From: a bacterium
GTDB lineage: Bacteria; Krumholzibacteriota; Krumholzibacteriia; LZORAL124-64-63
Direction of reading: 5' to 3'
Assembly (NCBI GenBank): GCA_031441465.1
Contig: JANOEP010000016.1
Location: 96,001 to 160,000, forward strand
DNA length: 64,000 nt
The position numbers were made by a program, and so were the translations under genes. The notes under the pieces are model-generated. The model was given only the letters and a program-made list of their open reading frames with translations. It did not search any database and was not told the DNA's origin. This document shows, piece by piece, positions 4,542 to 53,119 of this stretch (the first letter of the stretch is position 1; every line of letters begins with the position of its first letter).

Positions 4542-5171
4542 ATGAAATTTGTGAAATCCATCCTGGTGACCGGCGGCATCCTGGCGGTGCTGGCACTTCC
4601 CCTCGTTGGTGGAGTGAGCGTTGCATTGGCTGAAAACCTCCTGTCGAATCCCGGTTTTGAATCCGGCGACTTGACGGGGTGGCTGGTGTTCGGGGAGAGC
4701 CCCGACTCCCACATCGTCGTCCAGACCGGCGACAATGGCCCGTCGGCGCCCGGGACGCACAATGCGTACCTGAGCAATCAGGGAGAGGCTCTGGCTCTGG
4801 TCCTCAAGCAGTCGACTCCGGCCGGCAGTGCGATTCCGGGGACGGTCCTCTACTCGTTCGACCTGAAGCTGGACCAGGCCGACGTCGGCGGCGTGCTCTT
4901 CGTCAACATCTTCGCCGAGCAGGCTGGCGGCGGCGTCATCGGCGGCTCCGGCCTGATGGGTCCCTTCTGGCCGTGGAACGCGTGGGCCTCTTACAACGGC
5001 TCGTTCCAGGCTCCGGCCAACACGAGCTTCCTGACGATCCAGATTGAAGCAGTCACCGGCGCGAACTCCAGCAGCAGCTGCCTGACCCACGTGGACAACG
5101 TGGTCCTGGACCAGGGAACGGTGGCCGCGGAGGAAATGAGCTGGAGCGGCATCAAGACCCTGTATCGCTGA
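4542..5171 (+). CDS. Secreted carbohydrate-binding-module-like protein with C-terminal SWSGIKTLYR tag
   Basis: AAAGGAG RBS; signal peptide; NLLSNPGFESGDLTGW ... VDNVVL (CBM4/9-like jelly roll). Confidence 0.75.
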   Translation: MKFVKSILVTGGILAVLALPLVGGVSVALAENLLSNPGFESGDLTGWLVFGESPDSHIVVQTGDNGPSAPGTHNAYLSNQGEALALVLKQSTPAGSAIPGTVLYSFDLKLDQADVGGVLFVNIFAEQAGGGVIGGSGLMGPFWPWNAWASYNGSFQAPANTSFLTIQIEAVTGANSSSSCLTHVDNVVLDQGTVAAEEMSWSGIKTLYR

Positions 5172-5189
5172 TTTGGAGTGACCCGTGTC

Positions 5190-5227
5190 AAGGCCGTCTT
5201 CCTTCGGGGAGGCGGCCTTTCTCTTTC
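5190..5227 (+). terminator. Intrinsic terminator
   Basis: AGGCCGTCTTCC-TTCG-GGGAGGCGGCCT hairpin followed by TTTCTCTTT. Confidence 0.75.
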
Positions 5228-5431
5228 CCGCGTGCGTTTCCGACCTCAGCAGATGAATCGTTTCCGGTAGGTCGGAACTTTCATTTCGCAAGTGTTGGAT
5301 GATCCCTACGGGACCGGTGTGGGTGGAGTGAGGCATCCCATGCATAGCGGCTTGGCCAACCCCCGTCACAAGTGCTACGCTATCGATCCGATACGCATGC
5401 CGACCGCCCATCCGGCCCCAGGAGCCGACCC

Positions 5432-7663
5432 ATGCCCGCATCCAGCGACCACCGCAGCGTCGGCAACCCCCTACATCGACTGGACGCCTGGGACAAAGTC
5501 ACCGGTGTCACGCTTTTCCTGCCGGACCAGCCCCAGCCGGGCGCTTGGCTCGGCGCCGCCGTCCGTTCCCCGCTCCCGCATGCCCACCTGATCTCGATCT
5601 CGAAGACCGCAACGTTCCCGGCAGAGGCCGTCCTGCTGACAGCCCCCGACCTCCCCTGCGCCAACCTCGTCGCCATGGTCCGCGAAGATCTCCCGCTCCT
5701 GGCCACCGACGAAATCCGCTTCGCGACCCAGCCCGTCGCCCTGGTCGCCGCCCCCGACCGCGACACCCTGAAGGCCGCCCTCGCCGCCGTCATCGTCGAA
5801 CTCGAGGAACTCCCGGCCGTCCTGGGCATCGAAGCTTCCCTGCGTGGCGAAGGCCCCGTCTGGGGCGCGGACAACGTCGTCGCCGAGTACCGCGTCGACC
5901 GCGGCGACCCCGACGCCGCTTTCGCCACGGCCGCCACGGTCGTCGAGGGCACCTACTATACCGGCTACCAGGAACACATGTACCTCGAGCCCCACGGCAT
6001 CGTCGCCACTCCGCGCCCCGACGGCGGCATCGAGATCCTGGGTTCCCTGCAGTGCCCCTACTACATCCACAACGCGATGAAGCGCGCCCTCGGCCTCGAC
6101 GGCGACCGCGTCGTGGTGCGGCAGTCGCCCACCGGCGGCGCCTTCGGGGGCAAGGAGGACTACCCGTCCATCCTGGCCCTGCAGGCCGCCGTGCTGGCGC
6201 TGCGTTGCGGGCATCCGGTGTCGATGATCTACGAGCGGCGCGAGGACGTCGCTTGCACGACCAAGCGGCACCCGTCGCGCACGCGCTACCGCTCGGCCTT
6301 CGACCGGGACGGCAAGCTGCTGGCCGTCGATGTGGACCTGGTGCTCGACGCCGGCGCCTACACGACACTCAGCCCCGTGGTCCTGTCGCGCGGCGTGCTG
6401 CACGTGGCCGGGCCGTACCGCATCCCGCACGCGCGCATCCGCGGCCGCACCGTGGCCACGCACACCCCGCCCAACGGGGCCTTCCGCGGCTTCGGCGTGC
6501 CGCAGGCCGCGTTCGCCTGCGAGCGGCAGATGGACCGCGCGGCGCGCCGGTTGGGCTTGGACCCCGCCGAGCTGCGCCGGCGCAACCTGCTGCGCGACGG
6601 CGACACCTTCGTCTTCGGGCAGACGCTGCGTCCGGGCATGGCCGCGGCCGACCTCGTGCTCGAACGCGTGCTGGAGCGCTCCGGGTACGAGCAGCGCAAA
6701 CGAGAGGCGCACGCCTTCAACGCCGACAACAACCGTGGTGGAGGCGGCCCGCTGCGCCGCGGCGTGGGCGTGACGCTGACCATGCACGGCGGCGGTTTCA
6801 CCGGCGACGGCGAGGACCGCATCAAGGGCAAGGCCGCGGTGCGCCTGGATCCCGATGGTATCGTGACCCTGCTGGTCAGCAGCGTCGAGATGGGCCAGGG
6901 CGCGGCCACCGTGCTGCCGCAGATCGCGGCCGAGGCGCTGGGCGTGCCCATCGAACGGATCCGCTTCCACCAGCCCGACACTTCGGAAGTGCCCGACTCC
7001 GGCCCGACGGTCGCCTCCCGCACCACAATGGTCGTCGGGCGCATCCTGGTCGCGGCTTGCCGGCAGCTCGTGGACAAGGCCCGGGCTTTCGCGGGCGACA
7101 AGTCCGCCGACCCGCTGCTGGACGCCGGTCACGCCGGCCTGACCGCGACCGCGGTCTACGAACCCGATCCCGACATCGAGTGGGACCAGGCCACCTTGCA
7201 TGGCGACGCCTACCAGGGTTGGTCGTGGGCGGCGGCCGTGGCCGAGGTCGAGGTCGACACCGATACCATGGAGGTGCGGCCGGTCAAGCTGACCCACGTC
7301 GTGGAGATCGGGCGCGCCGTCAACCCCGTGCTGTGCGTCGGGCAGGTCGAGGGCGGCGCGCTGCAGGGCCTGGCCTGGGGCCACCTCGAAGAGATGAAGC
7401 TGAAGGACGGGCGCTACTGGAACGACCGCATGTCCACCTACATCATCCCCACCAGCCTCGACGCTCCCGACTTCGACGTGGAACTGGTCGAGCTGCCCAG
7501 CCCGCGCGGCCCCTTCGGCGCCAAGGGCCTAGGAGAGCTGCCGATGAACGCCGGCGCGCCCGCGCTGGCCGCGGCGATCGAGGATGCGCTGGGCATGGAA
7601 GTGTTCGAGGCCCCGGTCACGCCCGAGATTCTGCTGGCGCGCCGGCGGGAGGTGCGCCGATGA
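5432..7663 (+). CDS. Xanthine dehydrogenase family molybdopterin-binding subunit
   Basis: QEHMYLEP, GGAFGGKE, AFRGFGVPQ, VEMGQG, TVASR, GQVEGG, KGLGE motifs; AGGAG RBS. Confidence 0.92.
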   Translation: MPASSDHRSVGNPLHRLDAWDKVTGVTLFLPDQPQPGAWLGAAVRSPLPHAHLISISKTATFPAEAVLLTAPDLPCANLVAMVREDLPLLATDEIRFATQPVALVAAPDRDTLKAALAAVIVELEELPAVLGIEASLRGEGPVWGADNVVAEYRVDRGDPDAAFATAATVVEGTYYTGYQEHMYLEPHGIVATPRPDGGIEILGSLQCPYYIHNAMKRALGLDGDRVVVRQSPTGGAFGGKEDYPSILALQAAVLALRCGHPVSMIYERREDVACTTKRHPSRTRYRSAFDRDGKLLAVDVDLVLDAGAYTTLSPVVLSRGVLHVAGPYRIPHARIRGRTVATHTPPNGAFRGFGVPQAAFACERQMDRAARRLGLDPAELRRRNLLRDGDTFVFGQTLRPGMAAADLVLERVLERSGYEQRKREAHAFNADNNRGGGGPLRRGVGVTLTMHGGGFTGDGEDRIKGKAAVRLDPDGIVTLLVSSVEMGQGAATVLPQIAAEALGVPIERIRFHQPDTSEVPDSGPTVASRTTMVVGRILVAACRQLVDKARAFAGDKSADPLLDAGHAGLTATAVYEPDPDIEWDQATLHGDAYQGWSWAAAVAEVEVDTDTMEVRPVKLTHVVEIGRAVNPVLCVGQVEGGALQGLAWGHLEEMKLKDGRYWNDRMSTYIIPTSLDAPDFDVELVELPSPRGPFGAKGLGELPMNAGAPALAAAIEDALGMEVFEAPVTPEILLARRREVRR

Positions 7664-9033
7664 AGATGTCGATGTGGGTCAACGGCGTGAACCGCACCCT
7701 CGATGTTCAGCCGCTCAAGCGACTCTTGGACGTGCTGCGCGAGGACCTGGGCCTGGTCGGTGCGAAGGAGGGCTGCGGCGAGGGGGAGTGCGGCGCCTGC
7801 GCCGTGATCCTCGACGGACGGCTGGTCAACAGCTGCCTGCTGCCGGCCTACCGCGCCCACGGGCGGGTCGTGCGCACCATCGAGGGGCTGGGCACGCAGG
7901 AGAATCCCGACCCGGTGCAGGCCGCGTTCGTGGCCGAAGGCGCCGTGCAGTGCGGTTACTGCATCCCCGGTCTGGTGATGGCTTCGCGCGCGCTGCTGGA
8001 CGAGGAGGCCGTGCCGTCGCGCCCGCGCATCCGTGAGGCGCTGGCCGGCAATCTCTGTCGCTGCACCGGCTACGAACGGGTCGTGCGGGCCGTGGAGCGT
8101 GCGGCGCAGACGCCGGGGCGCGTCTGCGGGACCGAGCCCGTGGCCAATCCCGCTTCGGACCTCGAGGCTTCGCCCGGCGACGAGGTCTTCGTGCACATGC
8201 CGGGTTCGCTGCGCACGGCCTGCGCGGAACTCGCCGAGGGCGGCGTCACCGTGGTCGGCGGCGCGACCGACCTGGGCGTGCTGCTGCACGAAGAGGTCGT
8301 GACGCCCAAGGTGGTGCTCGACCTGAGCCGCGTGGCGGAGCTGCACGGCGTGCGCCGCGAGCAGGGCGCGCTGGTGATCGGCGCCGCGACTTCCTACGCC
8401 GACCTGCTGCGCGATCCCGACGTCGCGCGCGACCTGTCCTGCCTGCACGCCGCGGTGCGCACCGTGGGCGCTCCCGCCATCCAGAGCCTCGGCACGCTCG
8501 GCGGCAACCTCGTCAACGGTTCGCCCGGCGCCGACGCCGTGCCGCCGCTGCTGGCTCTGGGCGCGCGCATCCGTCTGGTGTCGAACGCGGGCGTGCGCGA
8601 AGTCGCGGCCGAGGCCTTCTTCACCGGCTACCGCGCCACCGTGCGCCGCGCCGACGAACTCGTGGCCGCGGTCGTGGTACCGGTGCCCGTCGCCGGCACG
8701 CGCCAGTCGTTCCGCAAGGCGGGCACGCGCCGGGCCCAAGCCATCGCCAAAGTGAACCTGGCCGCCTGCGCGCGGGTCGAGGACGGCGCGCTGCGCGGGG
8801 TGCGACTGGCGGCGGGGAGCGTGGGGCCGACGGTCGTCCTGCTCCGCGAGGCGATGGCGATTCTGGAGGGTGGGCTGGTTGCCGATCTCGAGCGATTGGC
8901 CCAGGCCGCGGCCGCCGCGGCGCGGGACGAGGTGTCGCCGATCGACGATGTGCGGTCGACGGAAGAGTACCGGCGCGAGGTGACGGGGAATCTGGTGGCG
9001 AGGTTCGTGGTGTTGCTATCTAATTATATTTAA
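7660..9033 (+). CDS. Fused 2x[2Fe-2S] + FAD-binding subunit of a xanthine-dehydrogenase-family enzyme
   Basis: ATGA overlap with the Mo subunit; GCGEGECGAC, QCGYC, NLCRCTGY, then GGATDL, TLGGNLVNGSPGAD, SPIDDVRST. Confidence 0.9.
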   Translation: MKMSMWVNGVNRTLDVQPLKRLLDVLREDLGLVGAKEGCGEGECGACAVILDGRLVNSCLLPAYRAHGRVVRTIEGLGTQENPDPVQAAFVAEGAVQCGYCIPGLVMASRALLDEEAVPSRPRIREALAGNLCRCTGYERVVRAVERAAQTPGRVCGTEPVANPASDLEASPGDEVFVHMPGSLRTACAELAEGGVTVVGGATDLGVLLHEEVVTPKVVLDLSRVAELHGVRREQGALVIGAATSYADLLRDPDVARDLSCLHAAVRTVGAPAIQSLGTLGGNLVNGSPGADAVPPLLALGARIRLVSNAGVREVAAEAFFTGYRATVRRADELVAAVVVPVPVAGTRQSFRKAGTRRAQAIAKVNLAACARVEDGALRGVRLAAGSVGPTVVLLREAMAILEGGLVADLERLAQAAAAAARDEVSPIDDVRSTEEYRREVTGNLVARFVVLLSNYI

Positions 9034-9144
9034 TAAAGTTACAGACACCCATCTATTGTGCAGCGGCATTGCATGATAGCCGGAGGCGTCGGCAGGCACA
9101 AAATATAGCTTGCAAATCGGGAAACAATTCCCATACTGCAAGTC

Positions 9145-10296
9145 ATGATTGCCCGCCGCTACGCCGGTCTCACTCGCGAGAGGCTTGCCGCCTTCCCGGC
9201 TGTCGCCTTACTCGGTCCGCGCCAGTGTGGCAAGACGACGCTCGCCAGGCAGCTCGGGGGCAGCTACTTCGACCTGGAAAACGACGGCCACGCCGCCCGC
9301 CTCGACGCGGAGTGGGACGCGCTGGTCGCAGGCGAGCGGTTGCTCGTGCTCGACGAGGCCCAGCGCGCGCCGTGGGTCTTCTCACGGCTGCGCGGCGCCA
9401 TCGACACCGACCGTAAGCGCAATGGGCGGTTCCTGCTGCTGGGTTCGGTGTCGCCGGCCCTCATGCAGGACGTCTCCGAATCGCTGGCGGGCCGGCTCGG
9501 CCTCGTGCACATGAGCCCGTTGATCCTCCCGGAGCTGAAAGCCGGTCAGCTTGATGACCTCTGGCTGCGCGGCGGCTACCCAGACGGCGGCATCCTCGTT
9601 CCCGGCATGTACCCGGCTTGGCAACAGGCTTACCTGGAACTCCTGGCCACCCGCGACCTCCCGATGTGGGGATTGCCGGCGAAACCGCAGACGACGCAAC
9701 GCCTGATGCAGATGCTGGCTGTCTTGCACGGCCAACCCTGGAACGCCTCGCAGATCGGGTCGAGCCTCTCGCTGGACCATAAGACCGTGTCCAGCTATTG
9801 CGATCATCTCGAGGGCGCCTTCCTGATCCGACGCCTGCCGCCCTACTTCGCCAACACGCGCAAGCGGCTGGTGAAGGCGCCGCGCGTCTATTGGCGGGAC
9901 AGCGGATTGCTGCACTCGTTGATGGGGGTGGCTGGTCTCGACCAGCTCTACCAGCAGCCGTGGCTGGGAGCGAGCTGGGAGGGATTCGTCATCGAACAGA
10001 CTCTCGCGAGCTTGGCGGCCGCGGGCAGGCAGGTGCAGCCCTACTATTTCCGCACGTCCGATGGCCGGGAACTCGACCTCGTGCTCGACTATGGTCACGA
10101 ACGCTGCGCCGTCGAGGTGAAGCTCACTTCGAATCCGACCCGCAGCATGCTGGATCAGTTGATGCTGACGTCCGAACTGGCCCAAGCCGGGCGTGCTGTC
10201 CTGGTCTGCCGCGTCGCGCGGAAGATCGAGAACGACAAGTTGCTGGTCACCAATCTTACCGGCTGGCTCCGCGGGTTGACCGCGAATCCGGGCTAG
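9145..10296 (+). CDS. AAA_14 ATPase with DUF4143 C-terminal PD-(D/E)xK-like domain
   Basis: Walker A GPRQCGKTT, Walker B LVLDEAQ, ESLAGR, RGGYP, ELDLV..AVEVK. Confidence 0.88.
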   Translation: MIARRYAGLTRERLAAFPAVALLGPRQCGKTTLARQLGGSYFDLENDGHAARLDAEWDALVAGERLLVLDEAQRAPWVFSRLRGAIDTDRKRNGRFLLLGSVSPALMQDVSESLAGRLGLVHMSPLILPELKAGQLDDLWLRGGYPDGGILVPGMYPAWQQAYLELLATRDLPMWGLPAKPQTTQRLMQMLAVLHGQPWNASQIGSSLSLDHKTVSSYCDHLEGAFLIRRLPPYFANTRKRLVKAPRVYWRDSGLLHSLMGVAGLDQLYQQPWLGASWEGFVIEQTLASLAAAGRQVQPYYFRTSDGRELDLVLDYGHERCAVEVKLTSNPTRSMLDQLMLTSELAQAGRAVLVCRVARKIENDKLLVTNLTGWLRGLTANPG

Positions 10297-11261
10297 GCCT
10301 GCTGCGCAGGCTCGAGTTCGGTCCGGACCGGGTACGATCGGGCGCTCTTCGCCGTGACACTGTCCCGCCAGCCAGGGTAATGCTCGTCCATCAGCCCCCC
10401 GCAGATCTCCTCGAACTTCTCGCGCTCCTGCGGGGACCACCCGCCGGGCTGCGAAGAAACCCGCCCCGCGTTGGACGTCGGCAGGAGCGGACCGCCGGGC
10501 GGCACCCCGAGGGCGGCCAGCAGTTCGTCCCGCGTGGCCGCCGAGGTGGTCAGATCCTCGAGGCGGAAGGTGTGCGTGGCGATGCGGTCGAGGTTGCGGT
10601 TCGTGTGGACCCAGAACCGGCAAGCCTGGGCGAAGACGTCGCCGGGGAAGACCGGCTTCACGCGGTTCCAGGGGCTGTCCTTGACGTACCAGCCGCGGTT
10701 GAGGCCCGACTGGACGACGCGGCGCCCGTCGCGGATCAGGCGAACGACGGCGTCGGCGCCGATCGCACCAGGCATCAGGGAGAAGTGCGGGGCGCACTCG
10801 ATCTCATGGTTGAAACCATCGACGAAGGCGCGCACTTCTTCGACGCGGCCGTCCGCGATCATCGGCAGCAGGTAGGGCCAGAGCGTCTCGTGGCGGGCGC
10901 GCAGGACGACGCCGTCGAGGTCGGTCCGCCCGTCGAGCCAGTGCGCGACCGACTGCGTCCCGCAGCGGCCCGAGCCGGTGATCAACCCGCGTAGGCGGCG
11001 GGCCTTCGGGCGGGCGTGCAGGGCGACCGGCCGCTTCACCAGGCGGCGCAGCAAGTGGGGGTGCCGCACCGACAGGCTCACCTCGGCCCAGACCGGCAGG
11101 TCGATGATGTCCAGGGTGTCGAGCGCGGCGGGGAACCGCAGGGTGCGTGAATCGATCCCGGGGGCCGAGACGCGCACCAGCCGCTCGCGCTTCCAGTGCG
11201 GCTCGTCCTTGAACAGGCGCAGGGCGCCGCTGCATGCGATCACGTCGTAGGCTTCGTTCAC
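10293..11261 (-). CDS. Sulfotransferase-like protein
   Basis: ITGSGRCGTQS (PSB-loop-like), RLIRDGRRVVQS, FRLEDL; GTGA-coupled to the upstream acyltransferase. Confidence 0.55.
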   Translation of the reverse strand: MNEAYDVIACSGALRLFKDEPHWKRERLVRVSAPGIDSRTLRFPAALDTLDIIDLPVWAEVSLSVRHPHLLRRLVKRPVALHARPKARRLRGLITGSGRCGTQSVAHWLDGRTDLDGVVLRARHETLWPYLLPMIADGRVEEVRAFVDGFNHEIECAPHFSLMPGAIGADAVVRLIRDGRRVVQSGLNRGWYVKDSPWNRVKPVFPGDVFAQACRFWVHTNRNLDRIATHTFRLEDLTTSAATRDELLAALGVPPGGPLLPTSNAGRVSSQPGGWSPQEREKFEEICGGLMDEHYPGWRDSVTAKSARSYPVRTELEPAQQA

Positions 11262-13535: not shown

Positions 13536-13548
13536 GCCCGCCCCGCCG

Positions 13549-15308: not shown

Positions 15309-15338
15309 TCCCGGCGACCCGACAAGGAGACCGTTGCG

Positions 15339-16760: not shown

Positions 16761-16775
16761 GGCGAAGGGGAAGTC

Positions 16776-36085: not shown

Positions 36086-36188
36086 GAGACAATAGACGCC
36101 CACGCAGCCGCTTGATACACCTGAACGTCCCCAACTGAAGTATCATGATGCGGGTGGTGGGTTGATTGCACCCTTGGAAGGACGCACG

Positions 36189-38846
36189 ATGAATCTCCGC
36201 CGTAGTATGGTCCTGGTCGCCTTGGTCTGCGCCTGCGCGGCATGGGGTGAGCCGGCGAACGCCGCCGTCGCGGATCTGCCGGACGAGGTGTTCTACCACA
36301 TCATGCCGATCGCTTGGCGGGACGGGAACAACGATGCGCAGCGGTTCGGGGACTTCGGTGGGCTGACGGCGTCGCTGCCGTACCTGCAGGGCCTCGGCGT
36401 GACGGCGATCTGGCTCAACCCGATCTTCCCGTCGCCCGCCTACCACGGCTACCAGCACGGGCCGGCTGATCAGCTCAACCCGTGGTTCGGGAACGAGGCC
36501 CAGCTGGTGTCGTTCCTGGAGGCGGCCCACGCCGCCGGCCTGAAGGTCTTCGTGGACTTCGTGGCCTACGGCATCAGCCGCGACGCGGTCTACTTCCAGG
36601 ACGCCTACGCGAACCCGTCCAGCGTCTACGACACCTGGTTGGCCTTCACCAACGCGGCCAACACGCAGTACCAGGGCTCGACCTTCACCACCTGGAACGG
36701 GGCCACGGTGCGGCAGATCTGGTGGGACCTGCGCGACCCCGGACCGGTTGGACTAGTCACGCAGTGGGCGCAGCACTGGCTCGACCCCGACGCCGACGGC
36801 GACTTCGGCGACGGCCTGGACGGCTACCGCCTCGACCACGTCTGGTCGACCTACCCCAACGGCACCGGTGGCTGGGGCTACCACATCGGCTCGTTCTGGG
36901 CCCCCTGGCGCGCGGCGCTGCGCGCGGTCAACCCCGACGTGGTCGTCTTCGCCGAGCAGGCCGACTGGGGCAGCTACGGCACCGACCTGTTCCCCGGGAT
37001 GGACGCCGCCTTCACCAAGCCCTTCGAGTTCGCCGCCCGCGACGCCCTGAGCTGGGAGGACGCCGGCCCGCTGTACTCGTCGATGTCCGCCACGGTCGCC
37101 GCCCGCGACGCGGCCGCGGTCGAGGGCACCTTCCTCTGCACGATCGGCAACCACGACGTCGGCCGCCTGGCCACCTCGATCGGCGATTCGTTCGCCAAGG
37201 GCAAGGCCGCCGCCGCCGTCCTGCTGACCCAGCCCTTCGCCCCGAACCTGTACTACGGCGACGAGATCGGCATGCGCGGCGCCAAGAACACGGGCTACGC
37301 GGGCGACGCCGCCGACATCCCCATGCGCGAGCCCTTCAAGTGGAACGCCGTGGCCGGCCCGCCGATGAGCAACTACTTCGTGCTGAACGCGGCCGCCTAC
37401 ACGGGGCGCATCTCGCAGAACAACGACGGCCGCAGCGTCGCCGAGCAGCAGGGCGTCTCCGGCTCCCTGCTGGAGGCCTACCGCGGGCTGATCGCCGCCC
37501 GCAGGGCCAGCGTCGCCCTGCGCCGCGGCGGCTACGCGCCGGTGACGGCGAGTGTGGCCTCCGTCTGGTCCTTCGTGCGCGACCACGCGGACCAGCAGGT
37601 CCTGGTCGCGATCAACGTGAGCGGCTCGTCGCGCTCACTCAGTCTGGACCTAGGCGATTTCGCGATCGCCGGCGGCGCGACCACCCCGACGGACCTGCTG
37701 ACCGGCGCGACGCTGCCCGCGCTCACCGACGCCAACAAAGGCGCCTACCCGCTGACTCTCGGCGCCTACGGCTACCGGCTGCTGCAGGTCGCGGTGACCG
37801 CTCCAGAGCCGCCGGCGAGCCTGCTGGACGGCCTCGCCGTGGCGAACCTCGCGCCGCCGCTGGCCCTCCAGGACACGCCGACCAACCTGGGCGACAACGT
37901 CTCGGAGCTGGACCGGCTGTTCGCCCGCGTCGCGGGCGATTCGCTCTTCGTCGGGCTGACCGGCAACCTCGCCACCGACGGAACCGGCCTCTGCCTGCTG
38001 CTGGACACCGCGCCCGGCGGCCAAATGGTCCTGGATCTCGGCGGCGTGCCCGTCCCGCCCAGCGGCCCCGAGCAGCTGACCGGGCTGCGCCTGGACGCGG
38101 GCTTCGCGCCGGACCAGCTGCTGTTCGTCAACGCCTACGCCGGCAACGTCTACGTGGACCAGTACACCCTGCCGGCGGGCGGCGGCGCCGTGAAGACCTA
38201 TCGTGGTGCGGGCGTCGTCGGCAGCGGCGGCGGCCTGCTGGCGGGCGGCGACAACCCCGATGGGATCCAGGTCGCGCTGGACAACCGCAACACCGCCGGC
38301 GTCACCGCGACCAGCGCGGCCGCGGCGGCCACCGCCGTCACCGGCTTCGAGATCTACCTGCCCGCGCTCAGCGTGGGCCTGGTGCCCGGCGAGGGCGCGG
38401 CGCCGCAGCTGGCGGCCTTCCTACTGCGGACCGACGGCGCGGTCACCAACCAGTGGCTGCCCGGACTGGGCGGCACGCTGACGGAGCCCGGCCTCGCACC
38501 GGACCTGGCCGACTACCCCGGCGACCAGTTCGTCGCCCTGCCGGCCGCCACCGCCGTGCCCGACACCGCCCCGTCGGTCTTCGGTCTGCGCGTCGAGCGG
38601 AACGCCGGTGCGGACACCGAGTTCTGGTTCCGCCTGCCCGAGGCCGCGGTCGCCCGCCTGGAGATCATCGATCTGCGCGGCCGCCGCGTGCGCACGCTGC
38701 TGGCCGGACCGGCCGTCGCGGGCGAGCAGATGGTCGCCTGGGACGGCGCCGACGACCGCGGGTCCCGCCAGCCGGGCGGGCTCTACCTGGCCAAGTTGAC
38801 GTCGGAGGGCCGCAGCGAGGTGCGGCGGGCGGTGCTGGTGCGGTGA
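36189..38846 (+). CDS. Secreted GH13 alpha-amylase family protein with FlgD-Ig/T9SS-like C-terminal domain
   Basis: Signal peptide; IWLNP..YHGY, DGYRLD, FAEQ, NHD, YYGDEIG; C-terminal IIDLRGRRVRTL..WDGADD.G..GLY. Confidence 0.9.
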   Translation: MNLRRSMVLVALVCACAAWGEPANAAVADLPDEVFYHIMPIAWRDGNNDAQRFGDFGGLTASLPYLQGLGVTAIWLNPIFPSPAYHGYQHGPADQLNPWFGNEAQLVSFLEAAHAAGLKVFVDFVAYGISRDAVYFQDAYANPSSVYDTWLAFTNAANTQYQGSTFTTWNGATVRQIWWDLRDPGPVGLVTQWAQHWLDPDADGDFGDGLDGYRLDHVWSTYPNGTGGWGYHIGSFWAPWRAALRAVNPDVVVFAEQADWGSYGTDLFPGMDAAFTKPFEFAARDALSWEDAGPLYSSMSATVAARDAAAVEGTFLCTIGNHDVGRLATSIGDSFAKGKAAAAVLLTQPFAPNLYYGDEIGMRGAKNTGYAGDAADIPMREPFKWNAVAGPPMSNYFVLNAAAYTGRISQNNDGRSVAEQQGVSGSLLEAYRGLIAARRASVALRRGGYAPVTASVASVWSFVRDHADQQVLVAINVSGSSRSLSLDLGDFAIAGGATTPTDLLTGATLPALTDANKGAYPLTLGAYGYRLLQVAVTAPEPPASLLDGLAVANLAPPLALQDTPTNLGDNVSELDRLFARVAGDSLFVGLTGNLATDGTGLCLLLDTAPGGQMVLDLGGVPVPPSGPEQLTGLRLDAGFAPDQLLFVNAYAGNVYVDQYTLPAGGGAVKTYRGAGVVGSGGGLLAGGDNPDGIQVALDNRNTAGVTATSAAAAATAVTGFEIYLPALSVGLVPGEGAAPQLAAFLLRTDGAVTNQWLPGLGGTLTEPGLAPDLADYPGDQFVALPAATAVPDTAPSVFGLRVERNAGADTEFWFRLPEAAVARLEIIDLRGRRVRTLLAGPAVAGEQMVAWDGADDRGSRQPGGLYLAKLTSEGRSEVRRAVLVR

Positions 38847-39318: not shown

Positions 39319-40107
39319 CTACCTGTAGAGCGTCTTCACGGAACCCCAGGACGCGGCCTGTTCGGCGACGGGATCGCCCAGGGAATCGCCGGTCTGGCCG
39401 ATGCGCATGATCAGACCGGCACAGTCCGAGGTCATGCAGCTGGCGCAGGTCATGTCGTTGTGCAGGTCGACCTGCAACGCGAGGCTGCTGCCGCACTGGC
39501 CGTTGGGGCAGGTAGGAGGCCCCACCCGGACGTCGGTGACGCTCAGGAGAGGGCAGACTTCTCCGTGCAGGTGGAAGCCGTGATGCTCGCTCGGCGAGAA
39601 GGCGACCTCGTAGAAGATGTCGAAGAACGAACCGGCATGGGACACGTCGAAGTAGCGTCGCGCGTCACCCTCCGGGAACTCGGGGTGCATGGGCACCAGC
39701 GCGGCGGGCGCGCCGGTGGCGGTCGTGTAGTCGCAGAAGATGTCGAAGAAGCTGTCGGCCGCGAAGGAGGGCCCGCCGATGGCGGTGTCGTAGAAGATGT
39801 CGAAGAAGCTGTCGGCGGCCCAGCTGCCGCCGGGGCCGGTGCTGCTCGAGCAGCTCGCATACATCGGGAGCTGGGAGCCAGTGCCGCTGTCGCAACGATC
39901 CAGGTGCATGAAGTCGCGGCCGACGATGGTGATGATCCCGGAACTCGAGCTGGCGCCGACGGCCATCTCCAGCGAACCGCCGGGGTAGGGGGGCGACGCG
40001 ACGGACACCTCGGTGAAGATGTCGAAGAACGAACTGCCGGCCTGGGCGACTAGGGGCAGCGCGCACAGGGCCGACAGGACGCAGGAGAGCGTGAGCATTC
40101 GACGCAT
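39319..40107 (-). CDS. Secreted Cys-rich protein with four SFFDIF repeats and C-terminal SWGSVKTLYR tag
   Basis: GGAGG RBS; signal peptide ending AQA; repeats and tag read directly from the translation. Confidence 0.8.
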   Translation of the reverse strand: MRRMLTLSCVLSALCALPLVAQAGSSFFDIFTEVSVASPPYPGGSLEMAVGASSSSGIITIVGRDFMHLDRCDSGTGSQLPMYASCSSSTGPGGSWAADSFFDIFYDTAIGGPSFAADSFFDIFCDYTTATGAPAALVPMHPEFPEGDARRYFDVSHAGSFFDIFYEVAFSPSEHHGFHLHGEVCPLLSVTDVRVGPPTCPNGQCGSSLALQVDLHNDMTCASCMTSDCAGLIMRIGQTGDSLGDPVAEQAASWGSVKTLYR

Positions 40108-46600: not shown

Positions 46601-46847
46601 GCCGCTCGCGCTCGATGATCCGCTCCAGGAAGCCGTCGGTCAGCGGCTCGATGTAGGTGGCGTCGGCCAGCTCGGGGTCGGTCATGATCGTCGCTGGGTT
46701 CGAGTTCGCCAGCACGACGCGGTAGCCCTCGGCGCGCAGGGCCTTGCAGGCCTGCACGCCCGAGTAGTCGAACTCGCAGCCCTGGCCGATGGCGATCGGC
46801 CCGGCGCCCACGATCAGGATGGTCCGCAGGTCGTCACGCCTGGGCAT
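43629..46847 (-). CDS. carB: Carbamoyl-phosphate synthase large subunit
   Basis: [62 protein letters not shown] domain. Confidence 0.97.
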
Positions 46848-47946
46848 GGCCGGCCTCCCCGTGAGAGGCCGCCATCAGGGCGACGAAATCGTCGAAGTGC
46901 CGCAGCGAGTCGCGCGGTCCCGGCGCGCTCTCGGGATGGTACTGCACCGCGAAGGCCCGCAGCGCCGGCGCGGCCAAGCCCTCGCAGCAGCCGTCGTTCA
47001 GGTTGACCAGGGTGACCGCGGCGCCGTCGGGCAGCGTGGCGGGGTCGACGGCGAAGCCGTGGTTGTGGGCGGAGATCTCCACGCGGCCGCCGGCCGGCGC
47101 GCGCACGGGCTGGTTCCCGCCGCGGTGACCGAACTTCAGCTTGTACGTCTGCGCCCCCAGGGCCAGCGCCAGGATCTGGTGCCCGAGGCAGATGCCGAAG
47201 ATCGGCACGCGCCCCAGCAGCTCCCGCACCGCGGCGATCGCCGCGGTCACCGCCGCCGGGTCGCCCGGCCCGTTGGACAGGAAGACCCCGTCGGGCATCA
47301 GGGCTAGCGCTTCGGTGGCCGTCGTGTCCGCGGGCACGACCGTGACGCGGCAATCGCGCGCCGCCAGCTGCCGCAGGATGCTGTGCTTGATCCCGAAGTC
47401 GTAGGCGACCACGTGACGGCGGCCGGTGCCGTTCCAGGCGTACGGCCGCGCACAGGTGACCTCGCGGGCGAGATCGAGACCGCTCATGTCGCGCGCCGCG
47501 CGGGCCAGGGCGATCAGGCGCGCGGGATCGGGGTCGGCGGTCGACAGCGAGGCGCGCATCGCGCCCCGCTCGCGGATGTGCCGCACCAGGGCGCGGGTCT
47601 CCACACCGGTGATCGCGGGCCGGCCGTGCTCGCGCAGCCAGCCGTCGAGGTCGCGCCCTGCTCGCCAGCTGCTGACCACCGGGCTGATATCGCGCACGAC
47701 CAGGGCGGCGGCCCACACGCGGCCGCTCTCGCCGTCCTGGTCGTTGACGCCCGTGTTGCCGACGTGGGGGCAGGTCAGAGTCACCAGCTGGCCGTGGTAG
47801 GAGGGATCGGTGAGGATCTCCTGGTAGCCGGCGAGGCTGGTGTTGAAGACGATCTCGCCGACGGCGTCGGCGCTGGCGCCGAAGCCGAGGCCGGGCCAGG
47901 TCGAGCCATCCTCGAGGGTGAGCAGGGCGGGGGAGAAGCCGGTCAT
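46834..47946 (-). CDS. carA: Carbamoyl-phosphate synthase small subunit
   Basis: [49 protein letters not shown] at 47946. Confidence 0.95.
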
Positions 47947-48047
47947 GGAACGTCCCGTCGCGCTGGGTCGCGCGCTGGTCCGCACGTCGGGGGGGCAGGA
48001 ACCCACGCGACCCGTTCGGGTCAAGACGGATACCCCGCTCCCAGAGG

Positions 48048-48086
48048 AAAAGCCAGGGGAGATTGCGCCGTGGCGCGAATCTCCCC
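48048..48086 (-). terminator. Hairpin after the porin gene, probable terminator
   Basis: GGGGAGATT(C)GCGCC-AC-GGCGCAATCTCCCC, then TGGCTTTT on the minus strand. Confidence 0.5.
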
Positions 48087-48097
48087 CCAACCGACTG

Positions 48098-49216
48098 CTA
48101 GAGCTTGAACTGGTACTGAAGGCGGACGACTGTCTGGCCCGCTGCGGACCCCGCGAGCAGCCCGGAACCGGTGTTGGCGACCGGGATGCGGTCCAGGGCG
48201 CGGACCAGGTCCAGGGTCCAGCGGGAGGACTGGCCGTCGCGGTACCAGTTGACGCCCAGGGTGGCGATGTCCAGGGCCTCGTCGTCGACCGTCGCGGTGG
48301 CACCCGAAACGCCGGCGCCCTTGTTGCGGTGGTAGACGCCGTCGAAGTCCAGGTGTTCCCAGCGGCCGAACGCGTCCCAGGATCCCGGCACGATGCACAC
48401 CGAGCCCTGGGCCACCAGGGCCGTCTGGTCGGCGATCGCCGCGCCATGGGAGCCGTCCAGGCTCTGCATGATCACGGCGGCGAAGAGGCTGTAGCCGGGG
48501 CCGCCGACCGCCACGTCGGCGCTGGCCTTCAAAACGTCGGGGTCCACGCCCTGCTCGAAGTCCGCAGACACGCCCAGCAGGACGGCCGTGCCCGCGTCCG
48601 GCAGGGCGCGGAAGTCGGCGCAGCGCTTGCGGTCCCCGCGCAGGGCGAACTCGCCGCGCGCGGCCAGCGCGATGTCGGTGCGGTCGCCGCCGAGGTCGGT
48701 GCCGGCAGAGTAGGAGCCGTCGTGCAGGGCCACGGCCACCCGCGAGCGCGCGAACTCGCGCATCAGCGCCGCGCCCTCGGCGTAGTCCACGGTGAAGTAG
48801 TCGGCGGTGTAGGAGCGCTCGGCGGCCAGCTGGTCGGTGCTGCCGACGTTCTCCTCGCGCAGGAACTCGGGCTTGAACTGGCCGACCCGCAGGCGCCACA
48901 GCTGCGGCAGCGCGAGGTCTGCGTAGGCGTACTCGATCTCGATCCCGCCGGAGGCGCGGTCGGCGCCCACCATGAAGCGGCCGCTCATGCGCCCGTCCTC
49001 GGACTTGGCGCGCACGTCCAGGCGCGCGGTCCGCACCTGCACCCCGCCCTCGTTCCCGGGGTTGCCACCGGGCTCGTCGAGATGGGACAGCATGGCGCGC
49101 AGCTGCGTCTCGAGCCCGTACTTGAGCGTCGGCCCCTCGCCGGCGACAGCCGGCAGCGCGATCGCGGCGACCAGCGCCAGGGTCATGATCGGTCCGTGAA
49201 TCCGCCGCAGCACCAT
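48098..49216 (-). CDS. Outer-membrane porin-like beta-barrel (OprO/OprP-like)
   Basis: Signal peptide; [16 protein letters not shown] motif; LGVNWY; C-terminal RLQYQFKL. Confidence 0.7.
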
Positions 49217-49322
49217 GGTCTCGTCCTTCCGTCCGGGATGGGTCGGCGCCGGAACGCGCCGCCGTTCTCAGGTCCCATGTCTCGTTGTCTAGCATGTGAT
49301 ATTCCCATGAAAAAGACACTCA

Positions 49323-49335
49323 CAACTTGTTGATT
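49323..49335. promoter_or_regulatory. IHF consensus site in a divergent intergenic region
   Basis: CAACTTGTTGATT matches YAANNNNTTGATW within an AT-rich patch. Confidence 0.45.
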
Positions 49336-49561
49336 TTCAATGAAACGACCTTCGGTCAACGCACATCTTGATCAAATATGGCGGCCGAATCCGTCGTATA
49401 TGATGGATATACCGTGCATTATCGCGGTATCGGGTGATGCCTTCCGGCCGGCATCAACGGAAAACGTTCAATCATCACCTCCCAGGGCCGATCACTACTA
49501 CCAGTCGGCGAGCACGCCCACGAGGGGCTTGAACCTGTCCCGATGACGGAGGTGGACCCGG

Positions 49562-50023
49562 ATGGAGGAAGTGAAATGGAATGCCGCCCTGAGTATCGGC
49601 GTCGAAGCGGTCGACGATCAGCATAAGCAGCTGTTTGCCATCGTCAGGGAATTGCAGGACGCCATCGCTCTGAGCAAGGGTCAGAAGCGGATGCACCAGC
49701 TCCTGGAGAAGCTCATCGTCTACACCGAGACGCATTTCCGGGACGAGGAAGCCTACATGGATGAGATCGGTTATCCCGCTCTGGAGAATCACCGGCACGA
49801 GCACGAGCAACTCGTGCAGAAAGTCCGCCGCTTCCAGAGGCGCCTCGAGATGGAACGAATCAGCATGCCGGTGCTGGAATTCCTGATCAACTGGGTCGGG
49901 CACCACATCATGACGTCGGACCAGGAGATCGGTCGCTACGCCAGGGGCTGTTCCGGGGCCGAGGCCGTGGCCGATGAAGTGGTCGAGGACGAGGTGACCA
50001 GCCCGGCCGGATCCAGCCTGTAA
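49562..50023 (+). CDS. Bacteriohemerythrin
   Basis: W...SIG...DDQHK, HFRDEE, YP...HRHEH, W...HI...D. Confidence 0.92.
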   Translation: MEEVKWNAALSIGVEAVDDQHKQLFAIVRELQDAIALSKGQKRMHQLLEKLIVYTETHFRDEEAYMDEIGYPALENHRHEHEQLVQKVRRFQRRLEMERISMPVLEFLINWVGHHIMTSDQEIGRYARGCSGAEAVADEVVEDEVTSPAGSSL

Positions 50024-50754
50024 AGACCCTGCAACTGCGCGTAGAGGTCGGCGTGCCGGCGGCGCAGCGCGACGGGGTCCTCGAAGAAGCTCTCGGTCGC
50101 CACCGCGAAGAACTCCGACGGGTCTTCGGCGCCGTATGTGTCCAGCACCGTGGGCCGCCTCTTGTCCGCATCCGACTGCAGCTTCTGGTAGGCTTCGGCG
50201 AACACCCGCGCCCATTCCGCATGACCCGACGCCAGGCGGGGCGTGCCGTCGGCCTCACCGGTCTCCTGGTCCAGCTGGTGGGCGAACTCGTGCAGCACGA
50301 CGTGGCGCCCGTCGCGCCCCCGCCGGGCGTCGTGGAGCACCTCGTCCCAGGCCAGCACGACCGCGCCGGTGTCCCAAGCCTCGCCGTCCATCGAGTCGTC
50401 GTACTCGTTGACCAGCCCCGTCTCGTCCTCCTCCGCGATCTGCGCCACGAAGGTCGTCGGGTAGAGCAGCACCGAGTGCAGCCGCGGGTAGACGCCGGTC
50501 TCGCGCCCCAGCAGCAGCAGGCAGGCGGTGCCGGCGATCGTCACGCGCATCTCGTCGGTCAGCGCCAGCCCGCCGCAGCCTTCGAAGTTCTTCTCGGCCA
50601 GGAAGACCTGCGCCAGACCCAGCAACTCGGCGCGGCCGTCGGGGGGCAGGTGCCGCCAAAAGGGGACGTTCTTCTCGATGATGGCAAGCCGGTCGGCGGG
50701 GAAGGGCTGCGCCCGCAGCTTGGCGTGACGACGGCGCTTGAAGAAGTCCAGCAT
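49936..50754 (-). CDS. MtfA-family (M90) zinc-dependent peptidase
   Basis: FEGCGGL, GEAW..G.VVL.W, HEFAHQLD, EFFAVATESFF. Confidence 0.9.
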   Translation of the reverse strand: MLDFFKRRRHAKLRAQPFPADRLAIIEKNVPFWRHLPPDGRAELLGLAQVFLAEKNFEGCGGLALTDEMRVTIAGTACLLLLGRETGVYPRLHSVLLYPTTFVAQIAEEDETGLVNEYDDSMDGEAWDTGAVVLAWDEVLHDARRGRDGRHVVLHEFAHQLDQETGEADGTPRLASGHAEWARVFAEAYQKLQSDADKRRPTVLDTYGAEDPSEFFAVATESFFEDPVALRRRHADLYAQLQGLYRLDPAGLVTSSSTTSSATASAPEQPLA

Positions 50755-50829
50755 GCGGTGCCTCCGGGACGAGGAACGGGTCCGGTCATTGTCGGCCGGA
50801 CCCGTTCGATCGTCAACCGGTTGCCGGGG

Positions 50830-52107
50830 TCATTTCACGTCGTAGCAGATGACTTCCATGGGCGCGGGCTCCTCGTCGCCCTCGGGTCCGCCGGCGGCCC
50901 CCTGCGTCTGCAGGGTGACCATGGCGTCGGTGAAGCCCTTGACCACCACGAAGCGACCCTTGCCGCACTCCATCAGGGCGTCCTTGCTGCTGTCGCCGGG
51001 GCAGGCCACGCGGACCTGCTCGAGGAACTCGCCCGTCGGGGTGAACACGTCGTAGGTGGCCAGGATGCCGGCCGGCTGCTCGTGCCAGCCGCGGCTGCTC
51101 AGGACCCACAGGTTGCCGTCTCCGCCCAGCATCATGCCGTTGATCGTCTCCTCGGTCTTGGAAACCGAGTGCTCGACGGGGAAGGGGATGTTGCGCAGCT
51201 GGGCCGACATGATCGACTCGACCAGCGCGGTTTCCTCGGGCGTGCGGGTCCAGTTCACGTACTGGCGCTCGATCACGCGCTCGAGCTTGCCGTCGGGCGT
51301 GTAGACGTCGATGGCGTAGGCGTTGCGCTGCGAGGCGACGAAGACGCGGCCGTCGTTGCCGAGCACCCACTTGCGGAACTGTGGGAAGTACTCGGTCTCC
51401 TCGTCGATGACGAGCTTGCCGAACTCGTACTTGCGGGACTTGTGCGCGTAGGTCACCAGCGGCTTGCCGTCGGCCGCGTAGCTGCGGATGAAGTTGTCGC
51501 GGATCTGGAAGCCCTCGGTCTGGTTGATCGTGCTCTCGACGCCGCCGAGCACGAGTCGCCCGCTGCGGCCCTGCACGTCGGACAGCGTCAGGAACCCGCC
51601 CTCGGCGGGAGCGTCGCCGCCCGGCACGAAGGTCTTGGCCGGCGTGTCCTTGAGGTCGACGCAGACGATGCGGCCGGGGAAGGTCTGCACCAGGCCCAGC
51701 GTCCCGTCGGGCATGAAGAGCATGTCGACGGGGTAGCGCACCTCGCCGGGACCCTCGCCCTCGCGGCTGAGGGTGCGCGTGAACGCGCCCTGGCCGTCGA
51801 AGACATGAACCTGGTGGAGCTGCGTGTCCAGCAGGTAGACGTTGCCGGCGGCGTCGCCGACGACGCGGGTGATCAGGCCGAAGATGCTCTCCTCGTCGTC
51901 CGCCCCGCCGGCGCGCCAGACCTCCTTCAGGGCCAGAGTCCGCACCCCGACCGAGGGTTGAGCGCCGTTGCGGACGTGCAGCACGCCGTCGACGGTGACC
52001 TGCTCGGCGGCGAACGCCGTCCCGGCCGCCATCGGGATGCAGGAGAGCAGGAAGCAGGCGGCCAGAACGGCGGCCGGACGTGGTAAGCGGTTGCACTTGG
52101 ACATCAT
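50830..52107 (-). CDS. Secreted 6-bladed beta-propeller-like protein
   Basis: Signal peptide; D..GNVYLLD...VHVFD..G...GEGPGE; YDVFTPTGEFL. Confidence 0.7.
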   Translation of the reverse strand: MMSKCNRLPRPAAVLAACFLLSCIPMAAGTAFAAEQVTVDGVLHVRNGAQPSVGVRTLALKEVWRAGGADDEESIFGLITRVVGDAAGNVYLLDTQLHQVHVFDGQGAFTRTLSREGEGPGEVRYPVDMLFMPDGTLGLVQTFPGRIVCVDLKDTPAKTFVPGGDAPAEGGFLTLSDVQGRSGRLVLGGVESTINQTEGFQIRDNFIRSYAADGKPLVTYAHKSRKYEFGKLVIDEETEYFPQFRKWVLGNDGRVFVASQRNAYAIDVYTPDGKLERVIERQYVNWTRTPEETALVESIMSAQLRNIPFPVEHSVSKTEETINGMMLGGDGNLWVLSSRGWHEQPAGILATYDVFTPTGEFLEQVRVACPGDSSKDALMECGKGRFVVVKGFTDAMVTLQTQGAAGGPEGDEEPAPMEVICYDVK

Positions 52108-52278
52108 CGGAACCTCCCGGTGTAGTGGACCGGGGCGCTCCTACGCGCCCGGCCGCCCGAGGTTGCCCCCGGGACGGAATCCTGTCAACCGGGGCGATCC
52201 CCGGCAGTTGTGGGGTCGGAGCCACCGGATACCGCCGCCACCGCCCCGAATCAAGCCACCCGAATCTCGCTTCGGTAA

Positions 52279-52308
52279 TTGACAAAGCGTGTTCTCTTGG
52301 TCTATGAT
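52279..52308 (+). promoter_or_regulatory. sigma70-type promoter
   Basis: TTGACA-N18-TATGAT, ~115 nt upstream of ATG 52424. Confidence 0.65.
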
Positions 52309-52423
52309 CGGTCCTCGGGGGTCGGACCCGCCCACCCGCTCTCTCGCCCAACATCGTGCTGTCAGGTCCGGTCGCAGCCTTGCGTCCGGCGTTGTCGATC
52401 GTCGCACAAACGGGGGAGTCATC

Positions 52424-53119
52424 ATGAAGATCTTGAGCAAGCTGTCCGTCATCGCCCTGCTGCTGAGCGTGGCCACCGCCGCTTGGGCGGTCTGCCCAGA
52501 CGCCGTCGGCACCTTCGCCTACTACAACGGCACGCTGCTCGGCGGCCGTGTTTCGGAAGCCTGGTGCAACGGCGCCGCCGGCCAGCCGGGCAACACCGAG
52601 GACGCCCTGTCCTGGGACGGCGTTGCCCTGGGCACGCAGTGGAGGATCTGGAACCAGGCCATCGACGCCAACGGTCCGCAGCTTTTGAGCGACACCGTCA
52701 ACGGCAGCGGCAACGGCACCCGCCTCTACCGCACCTACTACGAGGGCGGCCAGTTCTGGCTTTCGAAGGACGGGGCCTGGGGCAACGGGATCGACGACCT
52801 GACGGGCTCGATCACGAGCTGCATCGTCGACGTGACGCTCACCTTCATCGGCGGCCAGATCGTCGGCGCGAACTCGAACGTCAACATGACCGGCAGCTTC
52901 GACAACTGCTCGTCCGGTTGCCTGATCGATTATGCGATCTCCAACGCCGCGCTGGTCTGGATGCCGGGGATGGGCACGATGCCCAACGGCTACCCGAGCT
53001 TCCTTTGCGGCGCCACCCTCGGCGAGCTGTTCAACGCCTGCTGCCCGCTGCTGCACATCAGCTGCGTGGTCGCCAACGAAGAGAGCGACTGGAGCTCCGT
53101 CAAGAGCCTGTACCGCTAA
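52424..53119 (+). CDS. Secreted Cys/Gly-rich protein with C-terminal DWSSVKSLYR tag
   Basis: GGGGGAG RBS; signal peptide ending AWA; own promoter and terminator. Confidence 0.8.
   Translation: MKILSKLSVIALLLSVATAAWAVCPDAVGTFAYYNGTLLGGRVSEAWCNGAAGQPGNTEDALSWDGVALGTQWRIWNQAIDANGPQLLSDTVNGSGNGTRLYRTYYEGGQFWLSKDGAWGNGIDDLTGSITSCIVDVTLTFIGGQIVGANSNVNMTGSFDNCSSGCLIDYAISNAALVWMPGMGTMPNGYPSFLCGATLGELFNACCPLLHISCVVANEESDWSSVKSLYR

Follow-up and report, generated by a model that had tools for sequence, protein, structure and literature searches.

Three tails in the window

We analysed a 64,000-nucleotide stretch of a Krumholzibacteriota genome (the window; C16:96001-160000 of genome G000, an assembly of 3.49 Mb in 74 contigs with 69.6% GC and 96.8% completeness), in which three genes encode proteins that end in the same 16-residue tail, hereafter the tag (Table 1). 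As a sequence-only reading of the window had proposed, the three tails lie in identical register and run straight into the stop codon, the bodies in front of them are unrelated to each other, and all three N-termini look like Sec signals: the n-region is basic, the core hydrophobic and the site that follows A-x-A-like. In an all-against-all BLAST comparison of tagged bodies two of the three, that of tagged gene 2 among them, are singletons, and that of tagged gene 3 pairs with one tagged gene only, on contig C67. The body of tagged gene 1 gives a weak N-terminal CBM_4_9-like match (Pfam E 0.0017, below the cut-off); that of tagged gene 2 has no Pfam or NCBIfam family above noise, and the Cys-rich body of tagged gene 3 has none either.

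No Pfam or NCBIfam model covers any of the three tails. At E up to 1 the three proteins also match none of the families of the C-terminal domain (CTD) of type IX secretion systems (T9SS), in a search where two positive controls from the same window, a glucanase of the GH16 type and a GH13 alpha-amylase, did match. The glucanase matches TIGR04183 at E 2.3e-8, over the cut-off, and PF13860 at the cut-off; the amylase matches Pfam Alpha-amylase at E 4e-38 and FlgD_ig at E 1.3e-7. Both enzymes thus end in an FlgD_ig / Por_Secre_tail CTD, as had been claimed, and this CTD occupies the slot that the tag fills on other proteins. Sorting machinery was not identifiable within the window, again in agreement with the earlier reading.

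In the body of tagged gene 2, a Cys-containing sequence without a family match, an SFFDIF motif occurs four times at intervals.

Table 1. Tagged genes and CTD-bearing comparators in the window (ORF, open reading frame; aa, amino acids)
Feature	Position	Strand	Remarks
Tagged gene 1	4542-5171	+	209 aa ORF; stop 5169-5171
Tag of gene 1	5121-5168	+	directly before the stop
Predicted signal peptide of gene 1	about 4542-4631	+	own heuristic
Tagged gene 2	39319-40107	-	262 aa ORF; stop 39319-39321
Tag of gene 2	39322-39369	-	directly before the stop
Predicted signal peptide of gene 2	about 40039-40107	-	own heuristic
Tagged gene 3	52424-53119	+	231 aa ORF; stop 53117-53119
Tag of gene 3	53069-53116	+	directly before the stop
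Predicted signal peptide of gene 3	about 52424-52489	+	own heuristic
GH16-type glucanase (comparator)	2265-4127	-	620 aa; T9SS type A / FlgD_ig CTD at about 2277-2516
GH13 alpha-amylase (comparator)	36162-38846	+	894 aa; FlgD_ig-type CTD, residues 819-882, at about 38616-38807

The tag across the genome

The tag is not confined to the window: at least 60 genes of the genome, about 2% of the proteome, end in it, with the consensus V-[AP]-N-E-x-x-[ST]-W-[GS]-x-[VIL]-K-[AST]-[LM]-[YF]-[RK]-stop. A loose pattern, W-x-x-[IVLM]-K-x-[LMIVF]-[YF]-[RK], was run over the six-frame translation of the 3.49-Mb genome and occurs 35 times. In 32 cases the match abuts the stop and in one it is followed by a single extra residue; the two internal matches lack both the G or S after the W and the upstream context. 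The reversed six-frame proteome gave no match to this pattern. Internal occurrences of the motif are thus essentially absent. A profile built from the 32 tails was run on 31,842 stop-to-stop segments of the genome, and among its 70 best rows were 64 segments in which the match ended 0-4 residues before the stop.

The gene set comes from our own crude, GC3-based caller (2,655 genes), and signal peptides were called with a likewise crude and lenient heuristic of our own. The caller recovers 60 tagged genes, with a median length of 229 residues and a range of 46-381. The expectation that tagged proteins always carry a Sec signal was borne out in nearly all of them, a signal-peptide-like start being called by this heuristic in 58/60 tagged proteins versus 984/2,655 genes overall; a lipobox-like site is present in 2/60.

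Counting from the conserved Lys as position 0, the 60 tails have V at -11 (41/60), A, P or G at -10 (53/60), N at -9 (29/60), E at -8 (43/60), S or T at -5 (44/60), W at -4 (55/60, with F in the other five), G or S at -3 (47 and 13, together 60/60), V, I or L at -1 (60/60), K at 0 (60/60), A, S or T at +1 (57/60), Y, F or W at +3 (59/60) and R or K at +4 (46/60). The chain ends exactly four residues past the Lys in 46/60 and three to six residues past it in the rest, the last residue is R or K in 48/60, and the stretch before the W is acidic (a mean of 1.6 D/E versus 0.08 K/R). The consensus first drawn from the window tails was too narrow: in place of its V-A there is often V-P, V-G or T-P, in place of its [SD]W mostly [ST]W, the W is always followed by G or S, and the terminal R may be K, absent, or followed by one or two residues.

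Only about 10 residues, K and R among them, follow the N-E signature, and the tag contains no membrane-spanning hydrophobic run. The earlier argument that a tag without a transmembrane helix is not a PEP-CTERM, LPXTG or GlyGly-CTERM signal stands; the exosortase family PF09721 has no match in this 96.8% complete genome, sortase, rhombosortase and archaeosortase not having been searched for.

The bodies that carry the tag are diverse. By BLAST the 60 bodies form 44 families, of which 34 are singletons and ten are groups of 2-4 members, and 49/60 proteins have no Pfam match at all. Where NCBIfam recognises a body, it includes choice-of-anchor domains (E and J over the cut-off, C and a second J below it); the other bodies recognised are DNRLRE, the N-terminal lamin-tail domain (LTD) of ExeM/NucH, CBM20, cohesin, CHRD and DUF642. 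Choice-of-anchor proteins are described as surface proteins with interchangeable LPXTG, PEP-CTERM or T9SS anchors (bioRxiv 10.1101/2023.03.06.531300). Taken together, these results support the tag as a genuine and modular feature, strictly C-terminal, of proteins whose bodies are unrelated and whose N-termini point to Sec export.

Upstream of the Lys, at a distance of 9-18 residues, 26/60 tagged proteins have a Cys, often in the setting C-x(1-3)-V-[AP]-N-E; a disulfide may close the body just ahead of the tag. Tagged genes also occur in tandem arrays. Two, with spacings of about 650-1,300 bases, were seen in the third phylum described below (seven genes at G217:C6:9858-14254 and eight at G215:C1:3010563-3018486), and smaller ones lie on C32, C44 and C13 of the window's own genome.

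Exchange between the tag and the T9SS CTD

The genome is rich in T9SS CTDs, with 97 TIGR04183 and 120 PF13860 matches, and tag and CTD never meet on one protein: Por_Secre_tail, FlgD_ig and CHU_C are absent from the tagged proteins (0/60 at E up to 0.01), as the sequence-only reading had anticipated. Seven tagged proteins, from four body families, have untagged paralogues in the same genome, and every such paralogue ends in a CTD. In the clearest pair a 271-residue tagged protein is 67% identical to a 360-residue paralogue, with the start of the tag aligned exactly to that of the paralogue's linker and CTD.

We followed the exchange in the enzyme family of the 271-residue protein, using its best 120 database relatives and three paralogues; four rows without the anchor motif were dropped, and the tree was computed from the body only, with 119 rows (32 with a tag, 59 with a CTD, 27 without a C-terminal signal and one unclassed). 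The tag label changes seven times on this tree, at least three of the changes being forced by branches with at least 95% SH-aLRT support, and in one place a tagged protein and a CTD protein form a sister pair with little distance between them. As this is a quick tree in which near-copies inflate the clustering, the firm count is at least three exchanges. The tag is an alternative to the 70-100-residue CTD, filling the same architectural and evolutionary slot, and no fragment of it. The repeated exchange on homologous bodies, together with the choice-of-anchor bodies, is strong if circumstantial support for a sorting signal.

Among the best 120 relatives of the protein encoded by tagged gene 1, whose bodies are 60-100% identical, 111 have a canonical tag and nine a near variant; since all 120 keep the tag in one of these forms, it would appear to be under purifying selection. 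In seven of the nine (P0466, P0473, P0485, P0489, P0493, P0496 and P0511) the Lys of the tag is replaced by Q or N.

Taxonomic distribution

Counts across genomes come from a degenerate DNA pattern of 30 bases that encodes W-[GS..]-x-h-K-x-h-[YF]-[RK..]-stop. Within Krumholzibacteriota, the phylum of the window, it is found in 205/208 genomes; the window's own family mostly has 10-65 matches per genome, and in three families, as well as in some members of a fourth, the count is 0-8. The reversed DNA pattern gives about 13 matches over the 208 genomes versus about 3,400 for the real one. In a sample of Eisenbacteria 55/61 genomes are positive (54/60 without the unpublished G317), with up to 46 matches per genome and with six genomes at zero (G321, G324, G325, G337, G355 and G361). 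A third GTDB phylum, reached through a metagenome-assembled genome (MAG) labelled Gemmatimonadota, is positive in 12/12 genomes with 13-55 matches each. Beyond these, one Zixibacteria MAG has one match, and one Polyangiaceae MAG has one on a 2.2-kb contig, the latter probably a binning error.

A stricter pattern applied to one genome per prokaryote species returned at least 124 loci; among those listed about 118 look genuine and six are chance matches with in-frame stops upstream. Of the loci listed, the first 80 or so mostly come from Eisenbacteria or Krumholzibacteriia, or from genomes under broader names for these lineages. Searched with a profile of the tag, 1.84 billion representative proteins gave at least 359 matches at E up to 0.001, as a profile this short will miss some. 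In the best 150 of these 359 the core lies at most three residues from the C-terminus in 148, and 74 of the 93 full-length proteins among them look signal-peptide-bearing.

The tag comes in flavours. That of Eisenbacteria is basic (P-T-P-[TA]-R-x-x-[ST]-W-G-R-[IL]-K) and that of the window's genome acidic. In three genomes of family f9 of the window's phylum (G196-G198) the terminal residue is often Q or N (...LYQ-stop, ...LYN-stop), so a basic terminus is not universal. Several MAGs (loci L031, L032 and L108 among them) bear the public labels 'uncultured Fibrobacteraceae', 'Latescibacterota' and 'Gemmatimonadota', which disagree with the grouping in the species collection; there the 'uncultured Fibrobacteraceae' MAG groups in the window's phylum and the 'Gemmatimonadota' MAG in the 12-species phylum.

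Predicted structure of the tail

An AlphaFold2 model of the 271-residue tagged protein, made with a 34-row alignment, has a mean pLDDT (per-residue model confidence) of 88.6. Its body is a confident alpha/beta fold, followed by coil at residues 254-262 and a short helix at 263-270 that has a pLDDT of 51-66 and does not pack against the body. At this low confidence, the tag is predicted to consist of a flexible linker and a short helix. The amphipathic helix proposed in the sequence-only reading gains weak support, in that the model has an eight-residue helix after the coil; the hydrophobic moment of the tag is the same for a helix (0.40) as for a strand (0.40), which does not favour it.

T9SS components and the search for a reader

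The window's genome encodes SprA on C54 and, on C10, a PorU orthologue (403 bits versus a cut-off of 420 bits) that adjoins a PorV orthologue; at least four further barrels of the PorV family are present. SprA was found in 15/15 tag-rich genomes tested, namely the window's own, 12/12 of the 12-species phylum, G208 and G209. CTD load per genome, for which we have first-look candidate numbers, shows no relation to tag load across the 208 genomes of the window's phylum.

Neither a recurring partner nor a protease or transpeptidase emerged from the neighbourhoods of the 60 tagged genes, taken as three genes on each side. Neighbourhoods in 15 genomes with few tags (20 loci of 8-16 kb) likewise contained no conserved core tagged protein. 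A complex prediction of the PorV orthologue (residues 26-341, 39-row alignment) with a 36-residue tail (62-row alignment), run without controls, scored 0.00 and speaks neither for nor against an interaction.

On C47 (20-9705; L190) genes on the same strand encode a protein resembling TonB-dependent receptors, a large CTD protein, a PorV-like barrel (6165-7166), a 540-residue CTD protein and a tagged protein (8917-9705), the tagged gene lying in a stretch of lower GC content (about 0.60 versus 0.69). On C37 (8491-14448) the gene for a 1,399-residue PorU-like protein of the C25 peptidase family, with a CTD of its own, has two tagged paralogues (8491-9087 and 9493-10113) immediately upstream; several other large C25-like CTD proteins occur in the genome. 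With the GspD model a single secretin gene was recovered, on C48 (33146-33961); its match is below the cut-off and covers no more than the C-terminal half of the model. It may belong to a type II secretion system or to a type IV pilus system, and a type II-like route is neither shown nor excluded by it.

Against the Bacteroidota model, the PorV matches of Eisenbacteria genomes with few or no tags mostly reach a best E of 1e-33 to 1e-39 and so lie nearer to it than those of most tag-rich genomes (1e-23 to 1e-31), with G308, G350, G329 and G318 as exceptions; this difference may only reflect phylogeny.

Interpretation

We think it probable that the tag is a modular C-terminal sorting or anchoring signal that would be read by a receptor or an enzyme of the cell envelope. 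Tagged proteins would be exported by Sec and lose their signal peptide, as their N-termini suggest; the tail would then stay exposed on its flexible linker, in keeping with the low-confidence AlphaFold model; and an envelope receptor or processing enzyme would read the linear tail and fix the final place of the protein at or on the outer membrane or the cell surface. The most economical guess is that the reader would be a component that cooperates with these phyla's T9SS or acts in parallel to it, and an outer-membrane shuttle of its own is conceivable for the tag, as type A and type B CTDs each have one. More tentatively, the tag could mark a previously unknown envelope sorting pathway in several candidate phyla of the Fibrobacteres-Chlorobi-Bacteroidetes (FCB) group, with its own receptor or sortase-like enzyme, that serves small surface-binding proteins as an alternative to the CTD; we treat this as a serious possibility rather than as our expectation.

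Several observations weigh against a sorting signal with an envelope reader. SprA is also present in 5/5 zero-tag Eisenbacteria tested and in the Zixibacteria genome with its one match, and CTD cargo is abundant in 208/208 genomes of the window's phylum, including the three that have no tag. So far the tag has turned up only in the company of a T9SS, and a T9SS does not imply the tag; the earlier proposal of a signal running beside this system or piggy-backing on it may hold, with SprA in the tag-rich genomes tested on one side and the SprA-positive, tag-free genomes on the other. Neighbourhoods, PorV paralogues, PorV counts and CTD load have yielded no candidate for a receptor or processing enzyme. 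The sole family present in at least three of the 20 low-tag loci is a cluster joined by shared CTDs (nine loci), and CTD genes are so common that such neighbours are expected at roughly chance level. The PorV paralogue of the C47 cluster was considered as a required partner and rejected, as it occurs in only 20/41 genomes of the family (E up to 1e-40) and is missing from several very tag-rich ones; across the 61 Eisenbacteria the number of PorV-family barrels (2-7 per genome) is unrelated to tag load. Most tagged genes are monocistronic and scattered over the genome, and confidence in the predicted structure of the tail is low.

The closest competitor would have the T9SS itself, by its translocon, a PorV-type shuttle or the periplasmic ring, read the tag as a minimal signal and so export small cargo without a CTD. 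Replacement of the CTD by the tag on homologous bodies and the presence of SprA in every tag-rich genome tested fit this idea, and, as binders of extracellular polymers, the bodies (CBM20, cohesin, LTD, choice-of-anchor) must have a way through the outer membrane. The ends also resemble each other, local CTDs finishing in [KR]-h-x-L-[VA]-[KR] and the tag in K-x-[LM]-[YF]-[RK], but this likeness is weak and one residue out of register. According to the 'Substrate binding' section of a structural study, type A CTDs have a near-invariant, functionally important Lys near the C-terminus that contacts PorV and is the sole conserved contact residue (PMC10994853). The same study describes the Bacteroidota CTD as a folded Ig-like domain whose conserved motifs specify its fold and which buries about 1,850 square angstroms in SprA and PorV (PMC10994853), a burial that a 16-residue peptide cannot reproduce. 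For one CTD, secretion is reported to require the last 22 residues, and motif D is reported to bind PorM (bioRxiv 10.1101/483123); the outer-membrane shuttle reportedly differs between type A and type B CTDs (PMC12618676). These papers make a dedicated shuttle for a third type of signal conceivable and simple mimicry of a CTD by 16 residues unlikely; with tag-free SprA-positive genomes and with CTD load not tracking tag load, we regard direct reading by the T9SS as unlikely.

Still less likely, in our judgement, is an anchor that needs no machinery, in which a short amphipathic, cationic-aromatic helix would hold the protein on a membrane leaflet, lipopolysaccharide or peptidoglycan, in the manner of the C-terminal helices of MinD and PBP5. 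The predicted short helix on a flexible linker, the interleaving of W, [VIL], [LM] and [YF] with K and the terminal R/K, and the failure of our searches to produce a conserved neighbour or candidate machinery would suit such an anchor, and the acidic N-E-[DE] before the helix and the basic end after it would stabilise a helix dipole. The conservation of the tag is, however, much tighter than one would expect of a general lipid-binding helix, with three positions invariant in all 60 tails (G/S, [VIL] and K) and the distance to the C-terminus fixed in 46; the same core is kept across three phyla, and the helix would span only about 8-10 residues, with a modest moment that is no greater for a helix than for a strand. 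There is only a slim chance that the tail is a processing or cross-linking substrate, either a pro-peptide cut by a C-terminal processing protease or a Lys joined to peptidoglycan. Braun's lipoprotein ends in Y-R-K, and the invariant Lys of the 60 tails with their aromatic-basic end recalls it, and a cleavage site could be marked by the conserved V-[AP] ahead of N-E; but the seven relatives of the first window protein with Q or N in place of the Lys make an obligatory Lys linkage unlikely, the neighbourhoods examined link no protease or transpeptidase to tagged genes, and a pro-peptide would leave the repeated exchange with an anchoring domain unexplained. That the tails are remnants of paralogy or a compositional accident of a 70% GC genome is refuted by the controls. 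The ten small groups of tagged paralogues are what shared ancestry would leave, but 34 of the 44 body families are singletons, the reversed proteome and the reversed DNA pattern are empty or nearly so, and the best global matches are C-terminal in 148/150.

If the tag is indeed a sorting signal of the envelope, its consequences reach beyond this genome. LPXTG, PEP-CTERM, GlyGly-CTERM and the T9SS CTD each led to a dedicated enzyme or machine, and annotation uses such signals to predict surface proteins. In Krumholzibacteriota, Eisenbacteria and a third small phylum, uncultured but abundant organisms that degrade polymers in soils, sediments and wastewater, about 60 proteins per genome bear the tag, and most of these proteins are now annotated 'hypothetical'. 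A profile of the tag would reclassify thousands of proteins as envelope or surface proteins and would give a handle for finding the machinery. Should the T9SS prove to read it, this system would accept a linear peptide signal, contradicting the Bacteroidota picture; should it not, the tag would belong to an undescribed sorting system.

Comparison with known C-terminal signals

No existing Pfam or NCBIfam model accounts for the tag: over the tail, Pfam finds no family in the 60 tagged proteins (E up to 0.01) and NCBIfam none in the 63 scanned (E up to 1). The models tried include NF053834 (ultrashort_CTERM) and NF050076 (sort_motif_YLP), which like the tag describe short putative C-terminal sorting motifs without a transmembrane helix and do not match the tail. 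The full-text literature, subscription journals aside, yielded no description of the tag; the papers listed on the SprA/PorV/CTD translocon deal, by their titles and the openings of their abstracts, with canonical CTDs only, and among the choice-of-anchor papers listed nothing concerned the tag motif.

The outer-membrane beta-barrel beta-signal ends in an aromatic residue. We rejected it as an explanation, as the last residue of the tag is mostly R or K, the modelled body is alpha/beta, and the PorV-type barrels of this genome end in F. Linear C-terminal peptides that bind a receptor are known from the secretin S-domain (pilotins), PTS1 (the tetratricopeptide repeats of PEX5) and KDEL. Like them, the tag is short, lies at the very C-terminus at a fixed distance to the free carboxylate and is predicted to be exposed on a linker; it is probably disordered until bound. 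Unlike it, those signals serve a single protein family or eukaryotic organelles, whereas the tag is carried by about 2% of a bacterial proteome.

The tripartite sorting signals form the pairs PEP-CTERM/exosortase, LPXTG/sortase and GlyGly-CTERM/rhombosortase. The tag shares with them a short C-terminal signature and a large repertoire per genome on small, unrelated secreted proteins, many without a known function and choice-of-anchor carriers among them, and its order is similar, the V-[AP]-x-E signature coming first, then a stretch of greater hydrophobicity and last a basic end. It differs in having no transmembrane helix, no PF09721 exosortase in the genome and no NCBIfam match of the PEP-CTERM type on the tail.

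Close to the tag, too, is the T9SS type A CTD (TIGR04183 / PF18962 / PF13860). Both signals sit at the extreme C-terminus of Sec-exported proteins and in the same slot on homologous bodies, where they are mutually exclusive and have been repeatedly exchanged in evolution; both have a conserved Lys near a basic C-terminal residue, and both occur in genomes with SprA, PorU and PorV. The CTD, however, is an Ig-like beta-sandwich of 70-100 residues and the tag a linear peptide of 16-20, no CTD model matches the tag (0/60), the loads of the two are independent, and tag-free T9SS genomes exist. We place the tag, as a probable member, among the C-terminal protein-sorting signals, with a substantial chance that the pathway behind it is categorically new.

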